From assembly GCA_964106915.2 (NCBI GenBank), contig OZ066928.1: a stretch of DNA of 64,000 nt. The stretch is one strand, 5' to 3'. Position numbers and translations under genes: made by a program. The notes under the pieces are model-generated. The model was given only the letters and a program-made list of their open reading frames with translations, did no database searches and was not told the origin of the DNA. Of the stretch, positions 5,866 to 63,959 are shown in pieces (position 1 is the first letter of the stretch; each line of letters opens with the position of its first letter). Source of the DNA: Podarcis gaigeae. Taxonomy: Eukaryota.

Positions 5866-6919
5866 TAGTAGTTAAACCACTGTGGGAATTGTAGCTTTAA
5901 ATGTATGGTGTAAATGTGACCCTTCTCAGAGTAGACTACTGTAGAAATCAATGGACATGGCTACCTCGGACCCATTAATTTCAATAGGTCTACTCTGGGT
6001 ACAGCTTCATTTCATATAACCCAATATTTTTCAGTTTGGTGAATGAGAAGGGCCTTTGTTTACTTCCTTTTAAAAAAGTCTGCCCAAGGCACAGCAACAC
6101 TCTTCCTAACCAATGCATGGCAATGCATCTCTTCCCCTGCCCCATAACTTGGACTTTCATGGCTCAGGACAGCCGGCCGGGTTTCTAAAGATGAAGATTT
6201 TGTGAGTAATAATAACCACCATGCTTTAATTCTTCCTATGGGGGATCTTAAAATTAAAAGCTGACCAGGCCCAGCAGAGAGACATGTCGAAAACAGTGGC
6301 TACTGTAGAGCCTGAATGCACTGAGACGGTGGGTGGGAATGTTGCAAAAGAAGTTGAGGATAACAAATCTCTGCAAAACATAGAAGAGATGAGGTCCAAT
6401 GTTCAGTCAGTCAATATGCAAGTACAAGAATGGAGATTATGTGTCCCCCTACTTGCCTGTGGGAAACGGAGAGAGCAAGAGAGAAAGGGGGGGGGGTGGC
6501 GGCGGGAGAGAGAGAGAGATGCATGAATGACTGGAAGCAAAGTCTCCTAAGTGACACAGAAGTTGAGTGTATATGGCAAGGCCCTTGTCCAGATGCCAGG
6601 CAGCATCAGGCCACTGGCAGAAGTGGTGTGGCAGGCTGACAGGAGCAGTTCAGATGTAGGCAGGTTCTTCCAGGGGAAAGCCCGGAGGGGGCATTGGCTT
6701 TGTCAGCTGTGTCCATGAACTCTTGTAATAGAACAGCCAGCTGGAACTAAGTCTGCCCAGATGATACACGGGGCACAGATAAGCGCTCTCCTGTGCATGG
6801 GTTGGAAGATGACTGTCACCTGTATTCTCTCCTGGATGCAGCCCTTATGTTCCTTCCACACTCTTACTTAGCCTTGCAGGGCTGACACCAGTTTTGGTGA
6901 AAGTAGGACTATAAGCCTT

Positions 6920-7090
6920 GTTTCTTACGTTTCATTCCACCTTTCCTCCAAAGTGTTCAGACCAGCATATATTGGTCTTCCTTATCCTTGTAAAAAACAA
7001 CAACCCTGTGAGGTAACCCAAGGTCACACAGTGGCTTTTCTAGGTGTGTGGGGATTTGAACATGGCTCTATCTAATCTCATTCTGATTCA
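6920..7090 (-). mobile_element. Old MIR/CORE-like tRNA SINE
   Basis: aacaacaaccctgtgaggta...cccaaggtcacacagtggc...gggatttgaac (reverse-complement core and B box). Confidence 0.55.
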
Positions 7091-7706: not shown

Positions 7707-7732
7707 TGAGAATCCCCAGCATGGTTTAACAA

Positions 7733-8566
7733 TATCCGCCCTCCCTTCCCCACAGGTGGGTGGGGTTTGCGGCACCAAGCGAGGCTCACCTGGGCGGGTG
7801 CCACCCACCTGCCTGAGCTGGCCTTTGACTCGGCCCCGGCCAGGGAGGACAATGGACAGCCGGCCGGGGGTGGGCCTAAGGCCAAAGGAAAAGAGGCTGA
7901 CTCTTGGGCTCAAGCCTCTTTTGCTGCTCTTCCTTCTGGGATCACCCACCCACCCTCCCTCAATTAATATTTCTTGCCTTTTAATTTCAGCTTAGGTCAG
8001 CGATCTTCAATTTAACAATTTCTTCTTTACAGGCTAATATTTTGCCTTCCAGGTCAGCGGGCGCTGCTGCGGTCGTAAGATGGTTGCTGTATTCGGAACA
8101 GGGAAGGAATTTTCCCTGCATTGCCAGGTTTCGCCTTCCCCGTAGCAATTTCGTCACAACTTTGGCAGTTTTAGGCCTTGGCAAAGTAGCCTTTAGTCTA
8201 ACATCAAGTTGGGGGGGATGCATTGATGCATTCATGCTCCCTCCCCATGTGGCGGCGCTTGCAGGGCCCATTAAAGGGCAAAAACCAGGAGTCCCTGGCC
8301 CTAGAGCGGCGGCATGTAGGTCAAACTCCCCGGATGAGGTCAGTGTAAGTTTGCGCTTTGCAGTCCCCTCTCACTTGGCCTCAACTGCCTGCATATCCTC
8401 AGCCAGGCGGGCTGAGAGGGTTACCTGCCAAGCCCTGTGCCAAGTTTCCCACTTCTAATATTCAATAAAGTTGTGGCCAATTTGAACCCATACTCTGGTC
8501 TCTTGTGTCATCATTTGGGAAAAGGGGGTAGGCACCACAGACAGGGTTTACCGCATGTGCCCGCAA
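7733..8566 (+). mobile_element. Solo repeat of a putative tyrosine-recombinase (Ngaro/DIRS-type) retroelement, copy A
   Basis: GC-rich 834 bp; AATAAAGTTGTGGCC at 8464-8478; ends CGCAA; flanked only by shared CAA(T); removing it restores the host MITE (ggtttaacaa|tcaatcccttttcccagggaactc). Superfamily assignment is inference. Confidence 0.6.
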
Positions 8567-8640
8567 TCAATCCCTTTTCCCAGGGAACTCTTGTGTATTG
8601 AAGTTCTGTGAGGGGAATTTCACACCACTTAACTGTGATA

Positions 8641-8828
8641 GAGAATGGCTAGAGCTCAGTGGTAAAGCCTCTACATTGCAGGCAGAAGGTCCCAGGTTCA
8701 ATCTGCCACATCTCCAGGTAGGGCTGGGAATGTTTGTTTCCGAAAAACCCTGGAGGGCCACTGCCAGCAGGCAGTACAAAAGTAGATGAACCAATGGTCT
8801 GACTCAATATAAGCCAGCTTCCTATGTT
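8641..8828 (+). mobile_element. Squam3-like tRNA-derived SINE
   Basis: A box agctcagtggta, B box ggttcaatc, body ctccaggtagggctggg...ccactgccag, tail cttcctatgttc. Confidence 0.75.
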
Positions 8829-11464: not shown

Positions 11465-12112
11465 TGCACCATCTTTGTTTGCTGGCCGCCTCCTTTGGCT
11501 GCCATGGAGGCCCATGGGTTCCTGCCAAATGGGCCAATCTTTGGAGGCCCTGGGGTGGGGGGCTTAGCATGGCAAGCAGACCTGGGGGAGGTGGTCTTCC
11601 CTCAGGTCTGCCCACCATCAATTTAACTCAGCCACCCCACCCCCCGAGTGCAGCACCCAGTCACCCAGGGGTGTCACCCACCCTTCCCACCCCTTCATTA
11701 ATAGCTGATTACTGCTCTAACCGTTTCTTTTCAGCTAGCCAGGTTTTGCTGTGGTCTTTTGACGGTTGCCACATTCAGAGCCAGGAAGAAATCTCCCCGG
11801 CTCTGCAGGTTTCTCCTTCCGCATAGCACTAGTCACAACTTTGGAGGTTTAGGCCCTGGGTGGAATCCTATAATCTTCCATCCCATTGGGGTGGCAGTGA
11901 AGTGGTGATTCACCCATCCCCTGTTCTTCACAGTGGTGGTAACAGTACCATTAGAGGGCTTTGGAGGGAAGTCTCTGACCAAAGAGCCTGTTGCGTAGGG
12001 ATAGAGGGCCACAGAGCTTCCCTCAGCGTTTGGGGGCCCATCTGCATAAGCCTGTGTTTTGTGATGGATCCACCCCCAAATAGACCCTGTTGTATCTCAG
12101 ACCCCCTCCAGT

Positions 12113-12153
<41 letters not shown>

Positions 12154-12284
12154 TGCCCAATACTTCCTCCATCTGAAATCAATAAAGTTGTGGCCATTTC
12201 AAATCTCAGACAGTTGTCGTGTCCATTCATTCATCTCTAGCAGTCTGGCACGCTGGGCAGGGGACTCTGCAGCTGGGCACGCAA
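11465..12284 (+). mobile_element. Putative Ngaro/DIRS-type repeat, copy B (left end uncertain)
   Basis: Shares the C-rich box, structured core (11747-11842), AATAAAGTTGTGGCC (12181-12195) and terminal CGCAA with copies A and C. Left end inferred from CAAT at 11462-11465 and from size. Confidence 0.5.
12113..12152. repeat. (TG)n(AG)n compound microsatellite
   Basis: Direct inspection. Confidence 0.9.
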
Positions 12285-26535: not shown

Positions 26536-27355
26536 AATGCCAGCAGTGCAGGAATGCATAGCATGGTGCAAAAGGCTTGCTGCTGGTGGCTGCTATATTT
26601 CACACAATGTCAGTAGTAGCAAATGCCCAGTAAATGCTCCAAAGGCACAAAATGAAGTTCTAATGATGAAACTAAGCAGGTTCTGGCCCTCTAAGGGGCC
26701 CAGATGAAAGATTCCTCTGAGTAAATCATATATACTTTGCTGTGAGCTCTCTGAAGGAAGGTTGCTGTGTAAGTGTAATAAATAACAGCTAAGTGTAATG
26801 ATGGTAGGCTGCTTTTCTTTCCACAAGCAATACCTTGCACATCACTGGGTTGCCAGTATGGTGCCCATGCATTCCATGGCACCAATGAGGTCTTTCTCTA
26901 GCACCCATGGAGCTTTGAGCCCCCACAACACTCATTTCCCTCTTGGTCATAAGAACGTTACCTTTTCCTTCCTTGCAAAGTACATACAGCTGAAGGAGGA
27001 AGTTGGAAGAGTAACACTCTTTCTCACTTCCTCTTTTGCTTCCTCCCTCCAGGAATAATGGGAGTTGTAGTTCACCAACACATGGAGGACCACAGGGTCT
27101 CCAATCCTTATCTAAGCAATGCTGTGCTAGGTGGACTATCTACACTAACGACACATGAGTATCTTATCTGTTCTGAATCTTCCAAAATTCAGCTTCCTTG
27201 GATGTCCACAAGTTCTACTATAATGACAGAGGAAGGAAAACTTCTCTCTATCCACTTTCTCCATATACAGATAGGTAGCCGTGTTGGTCTGCCATAGTCA
27301 AAACAAAAAAAATTCCTTCCAGTAGCACCTTAAAGACCAACTAAGTCAGTTCTTG

Positions 27356-27393
27356 GTATGAGCTTTCGTGTGCATGCACACTTCTTCAGATAC
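27356..27393 (-). ncRNA. Minimal type I hammerhead ribozyme
   Basis: GUAU-CUGAAGA-A-GUGUG(CAUG)CACAC-GAAA-GC-UC-AUAC: CUGANGA and GAAA core, stem I GUAU/AUAC, palindromic AGCU stem III, UC cleavage site. Confidence 0.8.
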
Positions 27394-27607
27394 ACTGAAA
27401 CAGAAGTTTCCAGACCCTTCTATATAGTGAGAAGGTGGGGAGGGGTATTACTCAGAAGGGTGGTGGGAATGGGTGATTGGCAGATAGCTCATCACATAAC
27501 AGGCTCATCACAGCTATCTGCCAATCACCCATTCCCACCACCCTTCTGAGTAATACCCCTCCCCACCTTCTCACTATATAGAAGGGTCTGGAAACTTCTG
27601 TTTCAGT

Positions 27608-27645
27608 GTATCTGAAGAAGTGTGCATGCACACGAAAGCTCATAC
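27608..27645 (+). ncRNA. Minimal type I hammerhead ribozyme
   Basis: Exact inverted copy of 27356-27393; core CTGAAGA at 27612-27618, GAAA at 27634-27637; predicted cleavage 3' of C27641. Confidence 0.8.
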
Positions 27646-28656
27646 CAAGAACTGACTTAGTTGGTCTTTAAGGTGCTACTGGAAGGAATTTTTTTTGTTT
27701 TCACTTTCTCCATGCCAGGCATAATTTCATAAATTTCTATTCTGTCACCTCTTACTCACATTTTCTCTAAATTAAAAAGACCCAAATGCTGCAACTTTCC
27801 ATTTATGGAGGCTCACTCCATCCTTGTGATCATTTGGTTGTAGAGCACTATGAATTTTACATGTATAGCCTTCACCCTTCAGCCCTCTTCTCAGTTAGTT
27901 ACCATGAAGTCAGTCCATGAATCTGATTTGAGAAACAATACAATTCATTCTTTTTTAAATGTGATCATGCTTCTAAAATGGTAGCTGTGGAGTGATTGCC
28001 ACAGATAACTTGAAAGGTCCCCTCTGCATTATTCAACAGTCACCATTCCACGCAGCAGATGACATGACACTTGATGCAGAATGAGCTATCATCATCCTCA
28101 CGTTCCCCTTGAATTCACATGCCAAATCCTTTCCACGGTCCCAAGAAGTATCCAGTGACTATCACTGACTTGCTGCCGTTCCAATCACCCATCAAGTCCT
28201 TGATGTGATTCTCCTTCAATAACAATGGAAAGTATTGGATGGCACCTTTACCTTACATTTTTATGTGTTGTGAGAAAGTTTGGTTTTATATATACTGCTA
28301 TTAGGCCTGGCTCACACTGGCATCTTAAACAGGGCCTCTCCATGGTAAGAAGCCTCCGGGTGATTGTTACAGCTATTGGTTCAGACAGCTTCTATGGCTG
28401 CTGCTAAAGAAGTCATTCCGTTCCATCACCTGGGCTGCACCACCTCCAAATAGATTTTTAAAACATGCAAGTGCAGCAACTTCCATATCTGCCATTGTTG
28501 CTGGGAAGAAGTGAGGTAGTAGTGGAAGATGAGAGAGCAGGTAGGCAGGCAGGGGTCTGTGCTGCCAAAGGATTAGAAGGGAGCCTCTTTGCAGACAGCA
28601 ATAGCATTTGCCAAACTAGATAGCCAGAGACTTCCCACCAGACATAGGCTATGTAC

Positions 28657-29364: not shown

Positions 29365-30114
29365 GTATTTAGGACTATTTGCTGTGTCACATTGAGGGGT
29401 TTTTTATTTTTAAAACCTGCTTATTTTAAATACTTATTTATTTTACGTATTTAGAGGCTGCTTTTTCATCTCCCCCTACCGCAAAGAAGGAAAGAAATCA
29501 GAGCAGCAGAAAATCATACAAGATACAAAGCAATCAAACTCTGGTAACATTAGAAAAATCCACAACTAACAGCATAAAAATACGATAGATCAGAGCAGGC
29601 TAATCAGATTCACCAGGACTGGGCCAGCTATACATATTTCCAACATGCGCATGGCTACCAGTTAGAAATTTATTATTAGTAGCCAAATCCTAGCTGGACT
29701 GAGTATAGTACCTATGGCGAAGTGCTTGCTGCTGTCCCATAGTTGTTTCCATGAGGTTTCCAGTAACAGATGTCCAACCCTGCCAAAGTCCCCACTTCTG
29801 AAAAGAGAGCAGAGTCTAAGAAGCCCTGTCCTCTATTGGGTTTGGTCGCCCTAGGAAAAAAGTGGGAGAGGCTATGGATCTCCGGCATAACACTTCCATT
29901 TGCATTTGTTCAGTGGAGCATTAGATCAGACTGTAAATCTACACAATTTAAATTACTCTCACAGAAGTAACCCCCCTTCTCCAAAGCCCCTCCAATGCGT
30001 GAGCTCATTAACTTCCAGATTTGGAGTTATCAACAGCAAGCTAGTTCAGTAAGATATCAGTGTGGGAGCAGGTTCATTACTCTGTAGCATTTTTTTTAAA
30101 AAAAATGTTGGCAA

Positions 30115-30900
30115 ATTGGGTCCTCCCTTAAAGAGGGCACGTGTTGCGGTGAAACCTGGCAACCAAATCCTGTGTTGTGGGTGGGGATCATTGGTTAGCC
30201 ACAACACCCAATTGGTAGGTCTCTTGATGCTGGGTTTAATCTGGCCAATGGGACACAGTCTAAATGGATTGAGGGATCTATCTATGCCCATGTACGTGAC
30301 CCAGAGCTTCCTCTTTCGGCGCATGCATTCGGAACACCCGCCCACCTCTCCCTACTTTTAGGGCTTGTGCGCTTGACCTTGCTATGCCGTTGTGTGTCAT
30401 CTGTCGTTGGGATAGGAGAACAAGGAATTTCCCCCACTTGCCTGATTGGCTGTTGCCATTTGGGTTTTGCCTGCCACATAGCAAATCGTCACAACTTGTA
30501 AGGTTGCGGATAGGCACTAGTTCAGGTGATAGGGATGGGAGAACGCTTTCACCATCTCTATGTGAAGGGTATTCTGTTAAAGGAATCCAGGGACTCGATG
30601 GTTTGGTTAACCCATGAGAGGGGGTTGTGTCCATGCCTGAGTCCAGGGGGGCATTTGGGCAGCGGGAGATAGTCCGTTCCCGGATTTCTGCTTATCCAGG
30701 TGTTCATCCTAGGCTGACCTATGCTGGTGCCATGGGTCAGCGCTACCTGCAACAGTGCAGGGAGCTAGTCGAACCACAGCCTATGCAACCACTCACTTGC
30801 TGTAATCAATTTGTGGCCTAAATTCTGCCATAAACCAAACCAAAATTTGAGTCTTGTCTGAATTTATTTAAGGGGGAGGTTAAAAGGTCTGAACACGCAA
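30115..30900 (+). mobile_element. Putative Ngaro/DIRS-type repeat, copy C
   Basis: GC-rich 786 bp in AT-rich context; GCAAA at both junctions; structured core 30379-30497; degenerate aatcaatTTGTGGCC at 30804-30818; ends CGCAA. Confidence 0.55.
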
Positions 30901-31087: not shown

Positions 31088-31191
31088 CAAACAAACAAAC
31101 AAAAAAATTCCTTCCAGTAGCACCTTAAAGACCAACTAAGTTAGTTCTTGGTATGAGCTTTCGTGTGCATGCACACTTCTTCAGATACCTG
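31088..31191 (-). mobile_element. 104-bp Penelope-like insertion
   Basis: Near-identical to 27300-27393; 12-bp TSD tggtattcagaa (31076-31087, 31192-31203); (GTTT)n tail on the minus strand. Confidence 0.85.
31150..31189 (-). ncRNA. Minimal hammerhead ribozyme
   Basis: GGUAU-CUGAAGA-AGUGUGCAUGCACAC-GAAAGCUC-AUACC; 5-bp stem I. Confidence 0.8.
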
Positions 31192-36645: not shown

Positions 36646-37001
36646 AGGTAAAAGGTAAAGGGACCCCTGACCATTAAGTCCAGTCGTGACCAACTCTGGG
36701 GTTGTGGAGCTCATCTTGCTTTTCTGGCCGAGGGAGCCGGCATACAGCTTCCAGGTCATGTGGCCAGCATGACTAAGCCGCTTCTGGCGAACCAGAGCAG
36801 CACACGGAAACACTGTTTACCTTCCCACTGGAGCAGTACCTATTTATTTACTTGCACTTTGACGTGCTTTTGAACTGCTAGGTAGGCAGGAGCAGGGACT
36901 GAGCAACGGGAGCTCACCCTGTCATGGGGATTCGAACCACCGACCTTCTGATCGGCAAGTCTTAGACTCTGTGGTTTAACCCACAACGCCACCCGCGTCC
37001 C
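36646..37001 (-). mobile_element. Sauria (Squam1) SINE
   Basis: Full length; minus strand starts gggacgcgggtggcg, B box ggttcgaatccc, (ACCTTT)n tail; 16-bp TSD tgtgcagagacataaa (36630-36645, 37007-37022). Confidence 0.93.
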
Positions 37002-37552
37002 AGGGCTGTGCAGAGACATAAATGATTCTAAATGCTATGCACTATGGTGATCTGAACCATACCAGCTTATGTGAGGGAGTGTTCTATGAAGCTCCTACCC
37101 TAACACCCCATTCTCCCTGCTGGATCAGGCCAAAGATATATGGAGAGTGTATGAAGCAAGAGTAGCCAATGTGATACCTTCCAGTTGTTGTTACAACTCC
37201 CAACATCCTTGACCACCAGCCATGCTGACTGAAGCTGATGCAAGTTGTACCACAGCAACATCTTGAGGGCATGACATTGGCTACCCTTGCTTCATCTCAA
37301 GGCACAAGCAGAACACTTTCTTTGTAAGTTGACCATATGGAGAAATGTGCAGATGCTGACCTTCAATGTACGGGCTGGTGTGTATGGTTGGGTATATGGT
37401 TGGCAGTGTACTCACGCAGCTGGTGTCTGAAGCCAAGTGCTCATGGCAGAACCTACAATCTATATGTATCCTGTAGTTCCTTGAGGAAGACTGCTATTTA
37501 CTGTGTTTCCCCTCAAACCAGCATCCATCCACTTTGAAGGTATACAGTGGTA

Positions 37553-42949: not shown

Positions 42950-43273
42950 TTAGGTCCAGTTGCAAATGACTCTGGGGTTGTGGCACTCATCTCGCTTTAC
43001 TGGCTGAGGGAGCCAGTGTACAGCTTCTGGGTCATGTGGCCAGCAGGACTAAGCCGCTTCTGGTGAACCAGAGCAGCGCACGGAAGCACCGTTTACCTTC
43101 CTGCCAGAGCAGTACCTATTTATCTACTTGCACTCCATGCTTTCAAACTGCTAGGTTGGTTGGAGCAGGGACCGAGCAATGGGAGCTCACCCCGTCACGG
43201 GGATTCGAACCGCCAACCTTCTGATCGGCAAGCCCTAGGCTCTGTGGTTTAACCCACAGTGCCACTGCATTCC
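42950..43273 (-). mobile_element. Sauria SINE lacking its tail
   Basis: Aligns to 36670-37001 from ttaggtccag to gccactgcattcc. Confidence 0.88.
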
Positions 43274-46200
43274 TTCTCTAGGGGGTAGGGGCACTCTATT
43301 CTTTACTAACTGAAAACCTTATGTGTGTGTTTAGTGGGGGGGGGGTATCCTTCTGTCTCATGAGAGAATGGAAGAGTGTGCCTTTAGGAGAATAAATTTT
43401 ATTCCTGTGGATTAACAGACAAAAGTCTCAGTTTACTGCTTGTGTTTAAACGCTCAGGACTGAAGAGAGGTTAAATCCCATCTTAAGCAGTTTAATTAAA
43501 AGTATAGGAATTAGCCATTAGGCTGTTCTGCCCCTTTGTTAGCCTGTTTATCAAAGAAGGCTACAGACTGCAAAGTAAGTTTAAAACATACAGTTTACTC
43601 ACAGTCAAGCATTTGTCCTTAGCAGCAGTAGCAGCAATAATAAATGCAGGTAAAATACTTGAGTTTACAGCAAAAACAGTTTCAGGCACGTACCTGATGC
43701 TGGTGTGATCCAAGACACATCCTCTTTTGTGGTTAGCTGTGGTGCCCGGTTTGGGAGAGGAGCAACAGGAAATACTTATTTTATTTTTACAGTGATTACA
43801 GTGTTACAGTTTGAATACTGGTTCACGAACTACATCTTAGGCAGGTTCACATTAAAAAGTAAAATGAACTAATTTCTCCTTCTGTGCCTAGTGGTACAGT
43901 AGGAGATACTCTCTAGAGTCAGATTGCTGGGTTCTGCAGGTTGAGAGCCTCTCTTTGTTGCCTTTCACACAGTGTGTGTATTGTTTATTATCACACATTA
44001 TGTTCCACATTTCTTCCAAGGAGCTCAGGGGGGCATACTTGATTCTTCCTGTCTCCGTTTCATCAACGCAACAAACCTGCAAGTTGTGACTGGCCTAAGG
44101 TAATCCATGGCTGAATGGGGATTTGAACCCTAGTCTCCCACATCTTAGTCCAAAACCTTAACAGCTACACCATACTGGCTCCCCACACCCAGATGTTGCT
44201 GCACCTGCTCCTTTTTTCTGACATCCCAATAATCAGAACAATTCCATTAAACAGACATTGAATAACCATTTAATTTAGCTTGCTGGATTCAACTGGGCCA
44301 CACTGGTAATTCAAAACACCAGTGGATTTCACAAAAGTCATGAGAATAAAGAAATGTGCAGCCCACTGTGAAGCTCCACATCCATCACCTTGAATATTCT
44401 GCAGTGGCTACTTTTAACTTCCTGTGGATCTAGAAATGATGATATAACCACAATCTCTCTGCCTTTGTAAATAGACTAATAACAATAAAATATTTATAAT
44501 CCTAACGACAGCATAATAGTATATGGTTTCCAAACGTTATGAGTAAATCTCATTATCTAGGAACAATTTCTCCCTGTTGATTGACTTCTATTTTCTTGAA
44601 GGTGTGTTTTGAAGATTGCTATTCACCCTAATTGTAGCAATGGTGTTGGCTTCCAAACAGAAGTGAAGGACAAAGTGATATTGTAAGGCTCTAAATGGAT
44701 TTTCAGATGCTCCTTTCTGTAGGGGGAGAAAGAAGATGTCTGCTAGATTCAACTTCCATATTAATAGTCCCCAGTTAATCAGGTTCATTAATTTCAATGG
44801 GCTGAGTAGAAATAATATTGGATACAACCCATAATTCCCAAAGACCCCAGCGTTAAATGTCCCTTAAGTCTGTCTCCCCCCTCCCTGCAGCAGCAACAGG
44901 GGATAAAGGAAGACAGAAAATAATTTCCCCCATATTTGGCTCTTGGTACATTTCTATGACTGCAATGCCACAGGTGTTCCCCCAGTGCACCTGACCCATA
45001 GTGTTGCACAGATAAATCTGCATTTCCCAGAGCTCCTGGTGCCTGGTACATATCCATTGCAGTGTGCTTGATGCCAAAGAAGGAACAAAGAGGTTGAAGA
45101 GAAACCTTTCTCCATTCCTCTGCTGCTAGAATAGCAACAACAGCATGGTAGCATTGAAGGGAGCAGGTTTGGGGCTGGCAAGGAAACAGGGTTGAAGTTC
45201 AGATTAAAAGAGAGGCTAAAGAAGAACCTTCGGAGTTATGTTGCTGTTGAAGTAAGCATTATGAGTTGGCCAGATCCATTTTCCCAGGCCGAACCATCAC
45301 TAGAGCTGAGGATGGGTGATGCTCTAATGCTGCATAATGTTTGGCTGCAAGCCTCTGCTCATTTGAAATGCCCAAGAGTTGTATAAATGGCAAACCCATT
45401 TTTAATTTGAGTTTGCTAGTGATGCCCAGCTAGTTGTGAAGTTGCTTGACATCTTCAGCTTTGTTTTCTCCTGACTTTTCAAATTGCTTTTCGGAGGGGA
45501 GAAGGGAGGTGGGGTTGTTTAGTGAATTTTGATTGCTGGTTGTCATACTGGATCCATACTGAGAACTGACAATATAATGCATTGCTGCTCCCTGAGTCAT
45601 TGTTATTCCTGATTTGCTCCTTCTATAGCTGAAAAACCTCAGTAACACAGTTAGAAGGAGAATGGCAGTGCACGACATTACATGTTAATGACAGATGCTT
45701 TATTTGTGGGAGACATGCAAATAATGCTGAAGTAATTTTGTTCCATTGGAATTCTGCTGCAGTGATTACTGAAATTAGTATATTACTCTTGCCCCTATCC
45801 ATGTTGCTAACTTTAAAAAGTTCTGTGTCACCACCCACCCCTTAGAGTTTCACCAGCTCCATTCGAATGCCTCGTTTGTTAAATATTTATTTAAATAATG
45901 ATGACTATGATAAAACAGAGGCAAAACTGCATGAAAGGAACTGGGACATGTCTGTTCGTATTCATGGATTTAATAATTCCAGAATATCTCAAATCATGGT
46001 GCCATTATTTTCCTCTCTTCCCCACATTCACAGCATGCGTTCAAAGCACAATGATACCACTTCAAATGAATTATGGGAACTCTAATATGTTAAGGGTGCT
46101 AAAAGTTGTTAGGAGATGCTTCTTTCAGAGATACAAATTCCAGACCTCCCTGGGAAGAAGAATCTTCCCTCAAATATATTTTTTTATTTTGACTTTAGAA

Positions 46201-52412: not shown

Positions 52413-53827
52413 AACATGGAATGGGCTATACCAATCTGAGTTGATGAAACACTAAAGCACTGCCATTAACTTGTGGTTGATTATTCAAACAGGAACAGTA
52501 GTGCTAAACCATGACCCACTTGAGCCCATTTTTCATTTCATAATGGCCAAGTCAGGCACATACCCCCAAGATTATACTGCTCAGTGGTTCAGTTAAGCAA
52601 TTTATGCTCCGTTATGCTCATGGTCACTCCAGCATATTATTGTCTGCAAGGGGTGGATGTGTTAACCTTTCAAGGGGAATTTCCAGAGGATATCGCACAA
52701 ATGACTGCTGAGCATCTGCTGCAAAGAGGCAGAACATCAACAGTGACTTGCAAAGGAAGTCTGAAAGGCTGGTGTGAAGCTATAGCAAAACCTCAGTGGT
52801 TCAGTCCTTGGCATTTTGATACTTTGTGGAGTTTTTTTTTGTAAAGTCACTTAAATAATGCAGATAGAGTCCAAAAGGATAGAGCAGATAGAGTAGAGTC
52901 CTCGCAATACTTTCCTCAGCAAACTGAACAAAAACAGGAAACAAATGGCTTTTTCCTTCCCTGTACATAGCAGGGAGATATACAATACAACATACAGAGG
53001 GAAACTCCTTCAGAACCTACACAGCCAATCAGAGCATTTGCTATCTCATGGAAGATCATTCCTCTCCCTAGTAGCTAAGCAACTACTCTATCATCCCTCT
53101 CGGCTAGCTGGCTTGCTAACAACAGAATTAACCCTTAAAACACAAACTCAATAATCCCTGCTGTTGTTGCACTTCCAACAGTTTTAGCAGCATTATGCTG
53201 CTTTTAAACCTATACATGGCTGGACTTAGAATTGTAGAGTTGGAAAGGACTCCAAGGGCCATATAGACCAACCCCCGGCAATTCAGGAATCTCAACACAC
53301 AGTTCTCAATCCATTTCAAAACTACACCAGACCCTGCTTAGCTTTGCAAATGTGCTAGCAGTTTTATTGCTGTACCACTTGTACCATTAGAAAAAAAATA
53401 TTTTGGCCAGTAGTGGCTGGTGCCCATTAGGGCTGCTAAGGCAGAAGGCATAGTTGTCAACTGTAGGTGGGGCCAGAACCATTAGCAGGCGTAACCAACT
53501 AGTTCTCATTTCGCTCCCATCCACCTCCCCAACAAGGGACACCATTGAAGGACTGGATATACAGTAAGGAAGGCAGGGTATGGATGTGGGTAAACTGAGG
53601 TTGAGTGGGCCATTGCTCCCTCCACTGCAAGGAACCAGCCTCCACTGATTTTAGGTGTGGTATTTTTTAAGGATGCACTTGGGACATAGCATTATCCATT
53701 TATTTCCCAAAATTAATATCCTGCTTGGTTGTTGTTATTGTTTAAAAAAGCTCAGAGCAGTTTACAAAAAAGAATAAAACTACAAAATTATCAGTAAAAA
53801 CAGCTAAACAAATCAGTGATAACCTAA

Positions 53828-54189
53828 GGTAAAGGTAAAGGGACCCCTGACCATTAGGTCCAGTCGCAGATGACTCTGGGGTTGCGTGCTCATCTCACTC
53901 TATAGGCTGAGCAAGCCAGGGTTTGTCCGCAGACAGCTTCCGGGTCATGTGGCCAGCAGGACTAAGCTGCTTCTGGTGTAACCAGAGCAGCGCACGGAAA
54001 CGCCGTTTACCTTCCCGCCGGAGCGGTACCTATTTATCTACTTGCACTGGTGTGCTTTCAAACTGCTAGGTTGGCGGGAGCTGGGACAGAGCAAAGGGAG
54101 CTCACCCTGTCATGGGGATTTGAACCGCTGACCTTCTGATCGGCAAGCCCTAGGCTCTGTGGTTTAACCCACAGCGCCACCTGCATCCC
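53828..54189 (-). mobile_element. Sauria (Squam1) SINE
   Basis: Full length; 11-bp TSD tgataacctaa (53817-53827, 54192-54202). Confidence 0.93.
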
Positions 54190-54337
54190 ATTGATAACCT
54201 AAACACAGATTAAAACACATGCGGCAGCTGTTATAGTGCCAGTTACACACATCGAAGCAATCAAGTTGGCTTGCATGTAGAAGGTGATCCACGCATTCAT
54301 CAAACACTGACAAATAATAATCTCCTGTAGAGGGTAG

Positions 54338-62475: not shown

Positions 62476-63364
62476 GACAATTAATGTAACATGAAAAGTA
62501 TTTCACACTGTGGGGATTCATGTTCTCTGTTTGGAATGTGCCACTGTCTGTGTTTATAATTCCAACCAGCTGTCCTTGAATTACACATTTCCAATAAAGT
62601 TAAAACAGCTCATTTAAAGAACAGCTTAACACATGCTTCACAGCCAACATAAAACAGATTAAAGAGACAACTGCTGCTTTGCATACCCCTCCCCATGAAG
62701 TAGTTGGTCTTGGAACTTATTCCAATAGCTATTAGATCAATCCGAAATCCATTTGATGATGCATCTTCTATTCCACCCCAATTAGTACAGCACAAATAAT
62801 GGGTTACAACTTGGCATCAGATGCATCAGGCCCTCTTTCCGAAGCAAATACGGCAGCCAGCCAGAGAATGCTTCCTTGAAAACAGGGTTTAGAAACTGCC
62901 ATGCATGTTTAAAAAGATAGTTGTTATCATGTCCAAGGATCTGGACCCCAGCACTTTTACATGAATAGAGGAAGCCTGTACATGAGGAGACCCTCGCCCC
63001 AGAAGGAACCATAACTCAGGGGTGAAGCACACTTTGCATGCAGAATGTTCCAGGTTCAGTCATCAGGTAAAGTGATAAGAAAGCAGTACTGCTCTGCTCT
63101 GTGAGATTTCTCAAAGGTTAGGGGGCAGAATCTCAGGTCCCAGAACTGAATGCGACCCTCCAAGCCTTTCTTGCTTGCTGTTTAGGTTTATGTGTTCAAA
63201 TAGGCCACAATTTTATTGGTTACAGGTGTGAGCAGTTTGGATTAGACATTGGGTGAAGCCAGACTAGATCTCGACTTCCGTCTATCTGCTGGGAATCCAA
63301 CTAAGGGACAGAGGGGGCCCTAAGACTTACATCAAATAGGAGCATCCCGCAGGGTCCTTGTTGG

Positions 63365-63367
<3 letters not shown>

Positions 63368-63407
<40 letters not shown>

Positions 63408-63772
63408 TTTTATTTATACTCCGCCCTCCCCGGCCAGAGCCAGGCTCAGGGCGGCTAACATCAAACAGGAATTACAATAAAATGTAATAGAAAACAACAA
63501 ACAAACAAACAAACAGTTCATTAAAATACAGCTTAAAATGCAGCCTCATTTTAGTGGTAGCCCATAAATCAAGACCATAAAGGGAGGAAACATCAGAAAT
63601 TCACCCAAGCCAGCTATCCACGTTGGTCCTACATGGGCCAGCAAAAAAGCCAAGGGAAAATTTATATACCAAATCCCACATAAGGGGTCAGAGTGAGTCT
63701 AAGCCAAAGGCCAGGCAGAACAGCTCCATCTTGCAGGCCCTATGGAAAGATGTCAAATCCTGCAGGGCCCTA
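63368..63772 (-). mobile_element. L2-type 3' fragment with (TTA)n tail
   Basis: About 13 AAT units, then tttatttatactccgccctccccggccagagccaggctcagggcggct; ...aaaggccaggcagaacagctccatcttgcaggccc at the far end. Confidence 0.7.
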
Positions 63773-63959
63773 ATAATAGTGGCATGGCCCTAGCCCACAG
63801 ACAGGATCCACACCCCTAGATCCCTTTAACAGAATACCCTTAATGAGGAGGGGCAGGTGGAGGCTACAGTCTCACCTCCCAAATGGCTTGCCCACTTCAC
63901 ACTCAAATTGTTTTTGCCTGGCTGGGCTGTGTGTCCTTGAGCTCTGATCATGCTTCTTG

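Follow-up and report, generated by a model that had tools for sequence, protein, structure and literature searches.

The window, i.e., the whole 64,000-nt stretch of Podarcis gaigeae DNA that we analyzed, holds three related copies (A, B and C) which, judged by sequence, are solo A-C-B ends of Ngaro tyrosine-recombinase (YR) retrotransposons. Copy A spans 7731..8566 (plus strand, like all features of the three copies), carries CAA(T) at both ends and was delimited from a 30-locus family alignment together with the architecture of full-length elements. It starts with the A repeat (7731..7942), whose 3' border is approximate, being placed by the motif GGATC / CCCACCC from full-length A/C borders. 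The C segment (7943..8162), which is single-copy in full-length elements, contains a structured core and box 1. The core (8046..8184, defined by our model R1 and covariation) forms a four-way junction with an arm that carries a U-rich, putatively ENE-like internal loop, while box 1, GTCACAACT(T) at 8153..8162, provides the 5' arm of a predicted long-range helix. The start of the B repeat (8162..8203) is at the same time the 5' arm of a nested helix, the 3' arm of which (8405..8444) folds out the B spacer. Further downstream follow AATAAA (8464..8469), presumably the poly(A) signal, the box 2 arm AGTTGTGGC(C) (8469..8478), i.e., the 3' arm of the long-range helix, and, 9-10 nt beyond the helix end, a CCA (8488..8490) that is conserved in 17 of 22 representatives and presumably marks the cleavage site. 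Model R1 scores the core of copy A with E 3.5e-21, family A itself being part of the model.

Copy B comprises a C segment and a B repeat (11675..12284) with an A repeat upstream, the 5' end of which is not fixed; its core and box 2 lie at 11728-11863 and 12181-12195. Copy C (30113..30900) is again a solo A-C-B, with its core at 30361-30516 and a box 2 shortened by a 4-nt deletion at 30804-30818. Each of the three copies heads a family of stand-alone repeats of about 0.8 kb, and for none of the 90 fetched family loci does the similarity to other loci extend past ~0.8 kb. We tentatively assign families A-C to Ngaro based on the shared core model and the 74-78% identity of copy C to full-length Ngaro ends. 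A fourth, decayed B fragment (63130-63950, minus strand) is a relative of the L126 family and split by another repeat; it retains a box 2 variant at 63204..63217 (minus strand), and no core was detected there by the model.

With regard to the boxes, the coordinates given in the preliminary description are correct in all three copies. Box 1 (GTCACAACTT) is located at 8153-8162, 11832-11841 and 30488-30497, and AATAAAGTTGTGGC starts at 8464 and 12181, while 30804 holds a version with two mismatches and 63204-63217 (minus strand) one with a single mismatch. The window search for AATAAAGTTGTGGC returned 5 matches, compared to a mean of 0.79 in shuffled sequences, none of 100 of which reached 5. 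In the 1.5-Gb genome, exact matches of box 1 and box 2 separated by 285-345 nt number 3,932 (reversed control: 0), and a 16-mer of box 2 occurs 5,187 times versus once in the control.

To describe the helix, we use 22 of 24 representatives that were folded (two were skipped). The constant duplex GTCACAACT/AGTTGTGGC has 9 bp, the box 1 part being exact in 19/22, and takes in only the last A of AATAAA, i.e., five of the six hexamer letters stay unpaired. The 11-bp helix over the last three A's that had been proposed earlier is possible in half of the set, namely in the 11/22 representatives with TT at positions 10-11 of an intact box. Helix length also differs between families, with 10 bp for C and L124 and 9 bp for L126, L163 and L174. 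Likewise, the 7-bp pairing ascribed to copy C goes back to a box 2 that is indeed short, but due to the 4-nt deletion, which is private to this copy; most of its family carries the full box.

To place the boxes in complete elements, we read the parent architecture from 10 regions fetched around YR matches. The PF00589 search of the genome yields 103 matches, mostly from one young family, and the nearest named relatives of the recombinase come from Podarcis, Zootoca and Lacerta. Six of the 10 regions (L124, L125, L128, L131, L132, L133) show the arrangement A1-ORFs-B1-A2-C-B2, with a full-length order of A1-gag-RT-YR-SGNH-B1-A2-C-B2. Among the others, L126 has B1-spacer-B2 and no A1 match in the fetched stretch, two have a single B and one is without either box. 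The YR ORF matches PF00589 with E 1.1e-7 in L124 and 3.8e-7 in L126, both of which carry the same boxes and core, and the RT ORF matches RVT_1 with E 1.8e-12. Matches below the cut-off were obtained for the gag-like ORF1 (a weak CCCH finger match, E 0.005) and for the SGNH hydrolase ORF after the YR (Lipase_GDSL_2, E 0.001-0.003); no methyltransferase family was reported among the 7 ORFs scanned.

Downstream of the YR, the split direct repeats consist of A repeats of 214-217 nt with 100% identity and of B repeats of 418-437 nt with 99.8% identity (6/10 regions). Over stretches of 395-437 nt, B1 and B2 are 99.7-99.8% identical, and this includes ~330 nt that precede the presumed cleavage site. 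The C segment, with core and box 1, is single-copy and measures 158-161 nt. Mapping both boxes onto the full-length element, as had been suggested, locates box 1 once per element at the C/B2 border, ending a few nt before B2, while it is absent before B1. Box 2, on the other hand, stands behind AATAAA in each of the B repeats, with about 100 nt left to the B end. By ORFs and split repeats the parents are ordinary elements of the Ngaro plan, which bears out the YR-retroelement context assumed in the preliminary description.

Some loci show other arrangements of the same parts. L129:721-7085 and L130:253-6890 consist of A1-ORFs-B1 only and end exactly at the B end (GCAA), without A2-C-B2; such elements and the solo A-C-B copies are the pair of products one would expect from a circle that the recombinase resolves at its two identical B/A junctions. 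L015 (G000:C24:3803615-3807105) is a head-to-tail tandem of solo-type ends with an exact B/A junction, and L156/L157 (G000:C1, about 5.95 Mb), with two box-2 copies 796 nt apart, is either such a tandem or a full-length end. Furthermore, the start of the C segment, CCC(G/A)CCC(A/G)CC, is complementary to the B start, GG(T/C)GG, in 18/22 lizard representatives and in the distant relative L255 (L124:7284-7295 and 6653-6661; window 7943-7951; L255:5393-5403), which may position the second template jump.

The core was evaluated in 17 subfamily representatives. It folds into the four-way junction and the U-rich internal loop with 93.8% of cells paired, and 11 of its 33 pairs are changed on both sides, a number reached by none of 500 shuffles; slid controls pair in 32-49% of cells. 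These controls lean toward the structure since it was drawn from the same sequences. In the covarying arm, U runs of about 3-7 nt (5') and 3-6 nt (3') lie between G-C pairs in most representatives. That is, a U-rich internal loop flanked by G-C pairs, as in ENE-type elements, is present. Within the window families A-C the U runs are short (3-4 nt), and AA and CG are inserted at the lower stem. The GTC of box 1 has a conserved local partner as an alternative, namely an upstream GRC (94% of cells paired). A search with Rfam, ribozyme families included, found no match in the window and a best E of 7.4 on the end of L124; by eye, no hammerhead, HDV-like or hairpin-ribozyme motif was seen in these sequences.

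Whether the boxes pair was first to be judged by their covariation across family copies, as the preliminary description had proposed. For the one pair compared genome-wide, 3,932 copies are canonical, 46 are changed in box 1 only, 101 in box 2 only and 3 in both, versus about 1.2 expected; the 3 double-changed copies stem from three subfamilies. Covariation between the boxes is hence not above chance in this genome for the pair tested, because both boxes are frozen in the active lineages. The single and double changes look like post-insertion mutations, i.e., active lineages never altered either box. A perfect-complement variant of box 1 is found in 105 copies, scattered over subfamilies and similar to other single changes. 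The box 2 variant of the both-changed type has 3 genomic matches, next to which no matching box 1 was seen. Two candidates were discarded: a compensatory A-U to G-C change in L043, since the 2x2 count is at chance level, and a supposed family with G-C in place of G-U (L140/L143), since this variant is scattered over all subfamilies at background rate; the single both-side change that it contributes to the local helix was discarded with it.

Folding gives a mixed picture. The long-range helix has a probability of 0.55-1.0 in 15/22 representatives and of at most 0.12 in 7/22, with values of 0.97, 0.00 and 0.55 for the window copies A, B and C, respectively. When longer stretches are folded, L124, L128 and L132 favour a local hairpin, and whole-end folds of four elements yield probabilities of 0, 0, 0.24 and 0.66 for box 1 with the box 2 of B2. 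The outcome thus depends on the stretch that is folded, and prediction alone is insufficient to settle the pairing. With regard to B1, the fold prediction shows a long-range helix with its upstream sequence that has no counterpart in B2. In L124, positions of about 6620-6632 pair with 6946-6958, i.e., sequence upstream of B1 with a segment 20-30 nt before the hexamer, such that B1 and B2 fold differently.

The spacer between the boxes had been described as not conserved, but its ends pair with each other as a long nested helix in 22/22 representatives, a comparison made without shuffled control. Its letters differ between families A and C and the rest, and family-specific pairing is clear only for A and C. 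The nested helix is predicted to fold out the ~310-nt spacer and thereby to put the two boxes in register.

We also screened distant YR relatives, using an alignment of 56 recombinases to obtain the best 80 of 553 confirmed loci on metagenome contigs. In the 1,600 nt that follow the recombinase, a hairpin ending in GC/GCC comes after 17/130 hexamers (15 loci) compared to 8/296 elsewhere, where the hairpin criterion was set after inspecting the data, one of the 17 is not the motif and near-copies leave ~10 families. The arms of these hairpins change together (GTCAC/GTGGC, GGCCAC/GTGGCC, GGCTATG/CATAGCC, GCCAT/ATGGC), and three distant families show the same GTCAC/GTGGC pairs as the lizard elements, including the same G-U. 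The hexamer is wholly outside the stem, which in most cases is followed by the same AT-rich linker and CCA. Distant and lizard ends have one series in common, from a GGCGG-like B start through the hexamer and GGC(C) to the AT-rich linker and CCA.

Two of the distant loci contribute further detail. L255 shows the lizard topology with other letters, i.e., the hexamer within a 43-nt loop and a 9-bp helix ending in GCC, and, by eye, a short U-rich loop between G-C stems in its C segment. L271 has both B copies and a hairpin in each, such that the hairpin cannot license B2 there. The lizard core model has no match in the 80 distant loci (best E 0.18), few of which include segment C; L271 does, and thus the helix can exist without the lizard core. 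Of the hairpin loci, 16/17 cluster in a single branch that is distant from the lizard elements in a tree built with a quick method and weak at deep nodes. A relaxed scan of 38 loci, all but L217 from outside the hairpin table and many of them short, showed no further clear case, and 21 pattern matches on viral contigs include no YR relative.

Taken with the nested helix, the hairpins of distant relatives indirectly support the long-range helix of the preliminary description, and we consider it likely that the boxes truly pair, even without covariation and with folds that depend on the stretch folded. The helix ends where box 2 ends, and at this point both the core and the tail emerge, which suits either delivery of the tail to the U-rich loop or priming; both can hold.

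Our working model, which we put forward tentatively, is that the box helix folds the 3' end of the full-length RNA onto the core, marks it and primes reverse transcription. An RNA reading through B1 would be cut and polyadenylated near the CCA in B2, ~10 nt past box 2. Box 2 would pair with box 1 and direct the GGC-3' end into the core, while the ~10-nt linker and the tail would be removed by an RNase H of the element, as in Tf1, or by trimming. The RT could then copy core, A2, B1, the ORFs and A1 in turn, jump from A1 to A2 and rebuild box 1 and B2 from the B1 template, leading to a circle that is inserted by the recombinase. RNAs ending at B1 are without box 1 and would hence be unable to prime. 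The near-identity of B1 and B2, including the ~330 nt that a start at box 1 would leave out, is expected if B2 is rebuilt from B1 in each cycle. Of the two roles suggested in the preliminary description, that in replication comes closer, but the geometry is better explained by priming or by capture of the 3' end than by strand transfer from one box to the other.

Several points count against priming. The removal of linker and poly(A) tail has to come first and is a purely inferred step. Box 1 shows no sign of recopying from box 2, which is neutral with respect to the model. There is no covariation between the boxes in this genome, and their folding varies with the stretch folded. Among the distant relatives, L271 carries the hairpin in both B copies, the motif was defined post hoc and its loci are mostly from one branch. 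Four contig runs of related organisms, presumed to be RNA, gave no common end and no poly(A) among 24 listed of 129 loose ends, where contigs as such cannot show ends.

A second reading and the main rival, which is compatible with priming and which we consider somewhat less probable, is that the helix brings the poly(A) tail to the U-rich loop of the core, such that an ENE-type triple helix protects only RNA that ends in B2. Here, the covarying arm with U runs between G-C pairs and the position of the single-copy core next to box 1 fit well, as does the short U-rich loop of L255. ENEs are described as U-rich internal loops beside G-C pairs in the available text of PMC7583470, and according to the excerpts of PMC12501189 an ENE raises the mobility of the plant retrotransposon Evade. 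The lizard elements thus resemble the ENEs of KSHV PAN and Evade in having such a loop between G-C stems upstream of the poly(A) site of a retroelement, but their U runs are short and lie within a four-way junction, where a triple helix is putative. The 3-4 nt runs and the AA/CG inserts of the window families as well as the missing Rfam match argue against this reading, as does L271, in which the hairpin form occurs without a detectable core. Moreover, if the clamp were purely structural, it should show covariation as the helices around it do, but the boxes are frozen. We slightly favour priming over tail delivery because the helix end is frozen letter for letter while its neighbours covary, which suggests a sequence-specific reading of this end, because a helix with the same end persists where the core is undetectable, and because B1 and B2 are identical over ~330 nt and no primer is known for this class.

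Control of the poly(A) site is a third and unlikely reading. Whether or when AATAAA is used would depend on the helix or on its exchange with local hairpins, as for the polyA hairpin of HIV-1 (PMC2645353, as far as its accessible text goes). This is in accordance with a helix that abuts the hexamer and can cover up to three A's in 11/22 representatives, with the different folds of B1 and B2, and with L124, L128 and L132, where part of the hexamer lies in a local hairpin that box 1 could displace. Like in HIV-1, an RNA structure is found at a duplicated poly(A) signal. On the other hand, the HIV-1 hairpin encloses AAUAAA and represses the first site, while the lizard helix pairs one to three A's, only one of them in its constant part, and box 1 stands only before the second. 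That is, it is absent before B1, the site to be skipped, and present before B2, whose signal full-length RNA must use. The hexamer is outside the stem in all hairpin-type relatives, and its predicted accessibility shows no consistent difference between B1 and B2 in four elements. The occlusion of the signal suggested in the preliminary description is therefore poorly supported.

It is still less probable that the boxes do not pair in vivo, i.e., that box 1 is kept as part of the core and box 2 as a protein site, with their match being chance or relic. The missing covariation, the conserved local partner of the box 1 GTC and the rival local folds are in line with this, but the nested helix in 22/22 representatives and the same closing pairs at the same place in distant relatives are not. 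Finally, a role at the DNA level, where the complementarity would position ends of single-stranded cDNA for the second template jump or circle closure, fits the location of box 1 beside the 5' B border, at which the jump has to take place, and the mostly single-stranded cDNA of DIRS-1 with its need for internal complementarity (PMC7192593, in the portion available), but appears most improbable given that the G-U becomes an A-C mismatch in the minus strand, yet the U is kept in nearly all copies, and that the B border of L271 and L255 is not tied to a helix arm.

Returning to the priming model, a short duplex in place of a tRNA primer site has a precedent in Tf1, where it is said to be 11 bp long. 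The likeness to Tf1/Tj1, as presented in the accessible parts of PMC4600332, lies in a short intramolecular RNA duplex that replaces the tRNA primer site and needs a cut to free the primer. However, Tf1 primes with the 5' end of its RNA, as shown by experiment, while the lizard candidate is an inferred 3' end beside a poly(A) signal. Tf1-type elements pair a 5'-end primer after the 5' LTR. The lizard element has both boxes at its 3' end and, although it may act in the same way as Tf1, is not a Tf1-type member. For DIRS-type and other tyrosine-recombinase retrotransposons, the primer is stated to be unknown in the part of PMC7192593 available to us, which cites a proposal by Poulter and Goodwin of a 3' hairpin as the primer of DIRS-1. 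There, too, the RNA of a YR retrotransposon would fold back at its 3' end to give a candidate primer, but the element belongs to another superfamily and the structure is a local hairpin for which this text cites no comparative support; the predicted lizard helix has a loop of ~310 nt and is limited to the second repeat.

The references for Ngaro itself are DIRS-53_XT from Xenopus (PMC9210276) and a Cafeteria Ngaro with solo AB repeats (PMC8547959). The excerpts of both agree with the lizard elements in gag-like, RT, YR and SGNH ORFs, the split A1...B1-A2-B2 repeats and solo AB copies. In contrast, their B1A2B2 has no structured single-copy segment that would separate A2 from B2, and, within these excerpts, they mention neither a poly(A)-box helix nor a primer. 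Among the entries listed from freely accessible literature, no description of the box helix or of a structured C segment was found. We conclude that the boxes are a real feature, that self-priming (Tf1-type) and ENEs in retrotransposons are already known, and that the mechanism in the lizard elements is putative.

A more general version is conceivable, although we hold it as conjecture: Ngaro elements across animals might self-prime from their 3' end, using a G-C-closed helix ~10 nt before the poly(A) site that is trimmed to a primer, and the lizard elements would have shifted its 5' arm upstream by ~310 nt, to a single-copy segment that adjoins an ENE-like fold. If true, the lizard arrangement lets only full-length RNA be both protected and copied. 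The candidate priming site is precisely placed and predicts where the cDNA starts, and a young family, of which this one genome has about 90 nearly identical YR matches, offers material for such a test. Even if priming is wrong, a helix restricted to B2 together with the core could explain different fates of RNAs from two identical poly(A) signals.

Besides the Ngaro copies, the search of the genome and the window revealed some unrelated features. Strong phage-integrase matches (E 9e-25, 428-aa frame) are located on a small contig at G000:C135:4212-4682 and 43287-43757 (L091, L092); they are unlike the Ngaro recombinases and possibly represent phage or bacterial DNA in the assembly. Window positions 8631-8730, 36646-37137, 42950-43275 and 53826-54190 belong to what we take to be SINE-like repeat families of squamates. 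A near-perfect inverted repeat at 27296-27705 has 194-nt arms with 99% identity around a 22-nt gap, which suggests a young fold-back DNA element; an 88-nt part of one arm is found again at 31101-31188.
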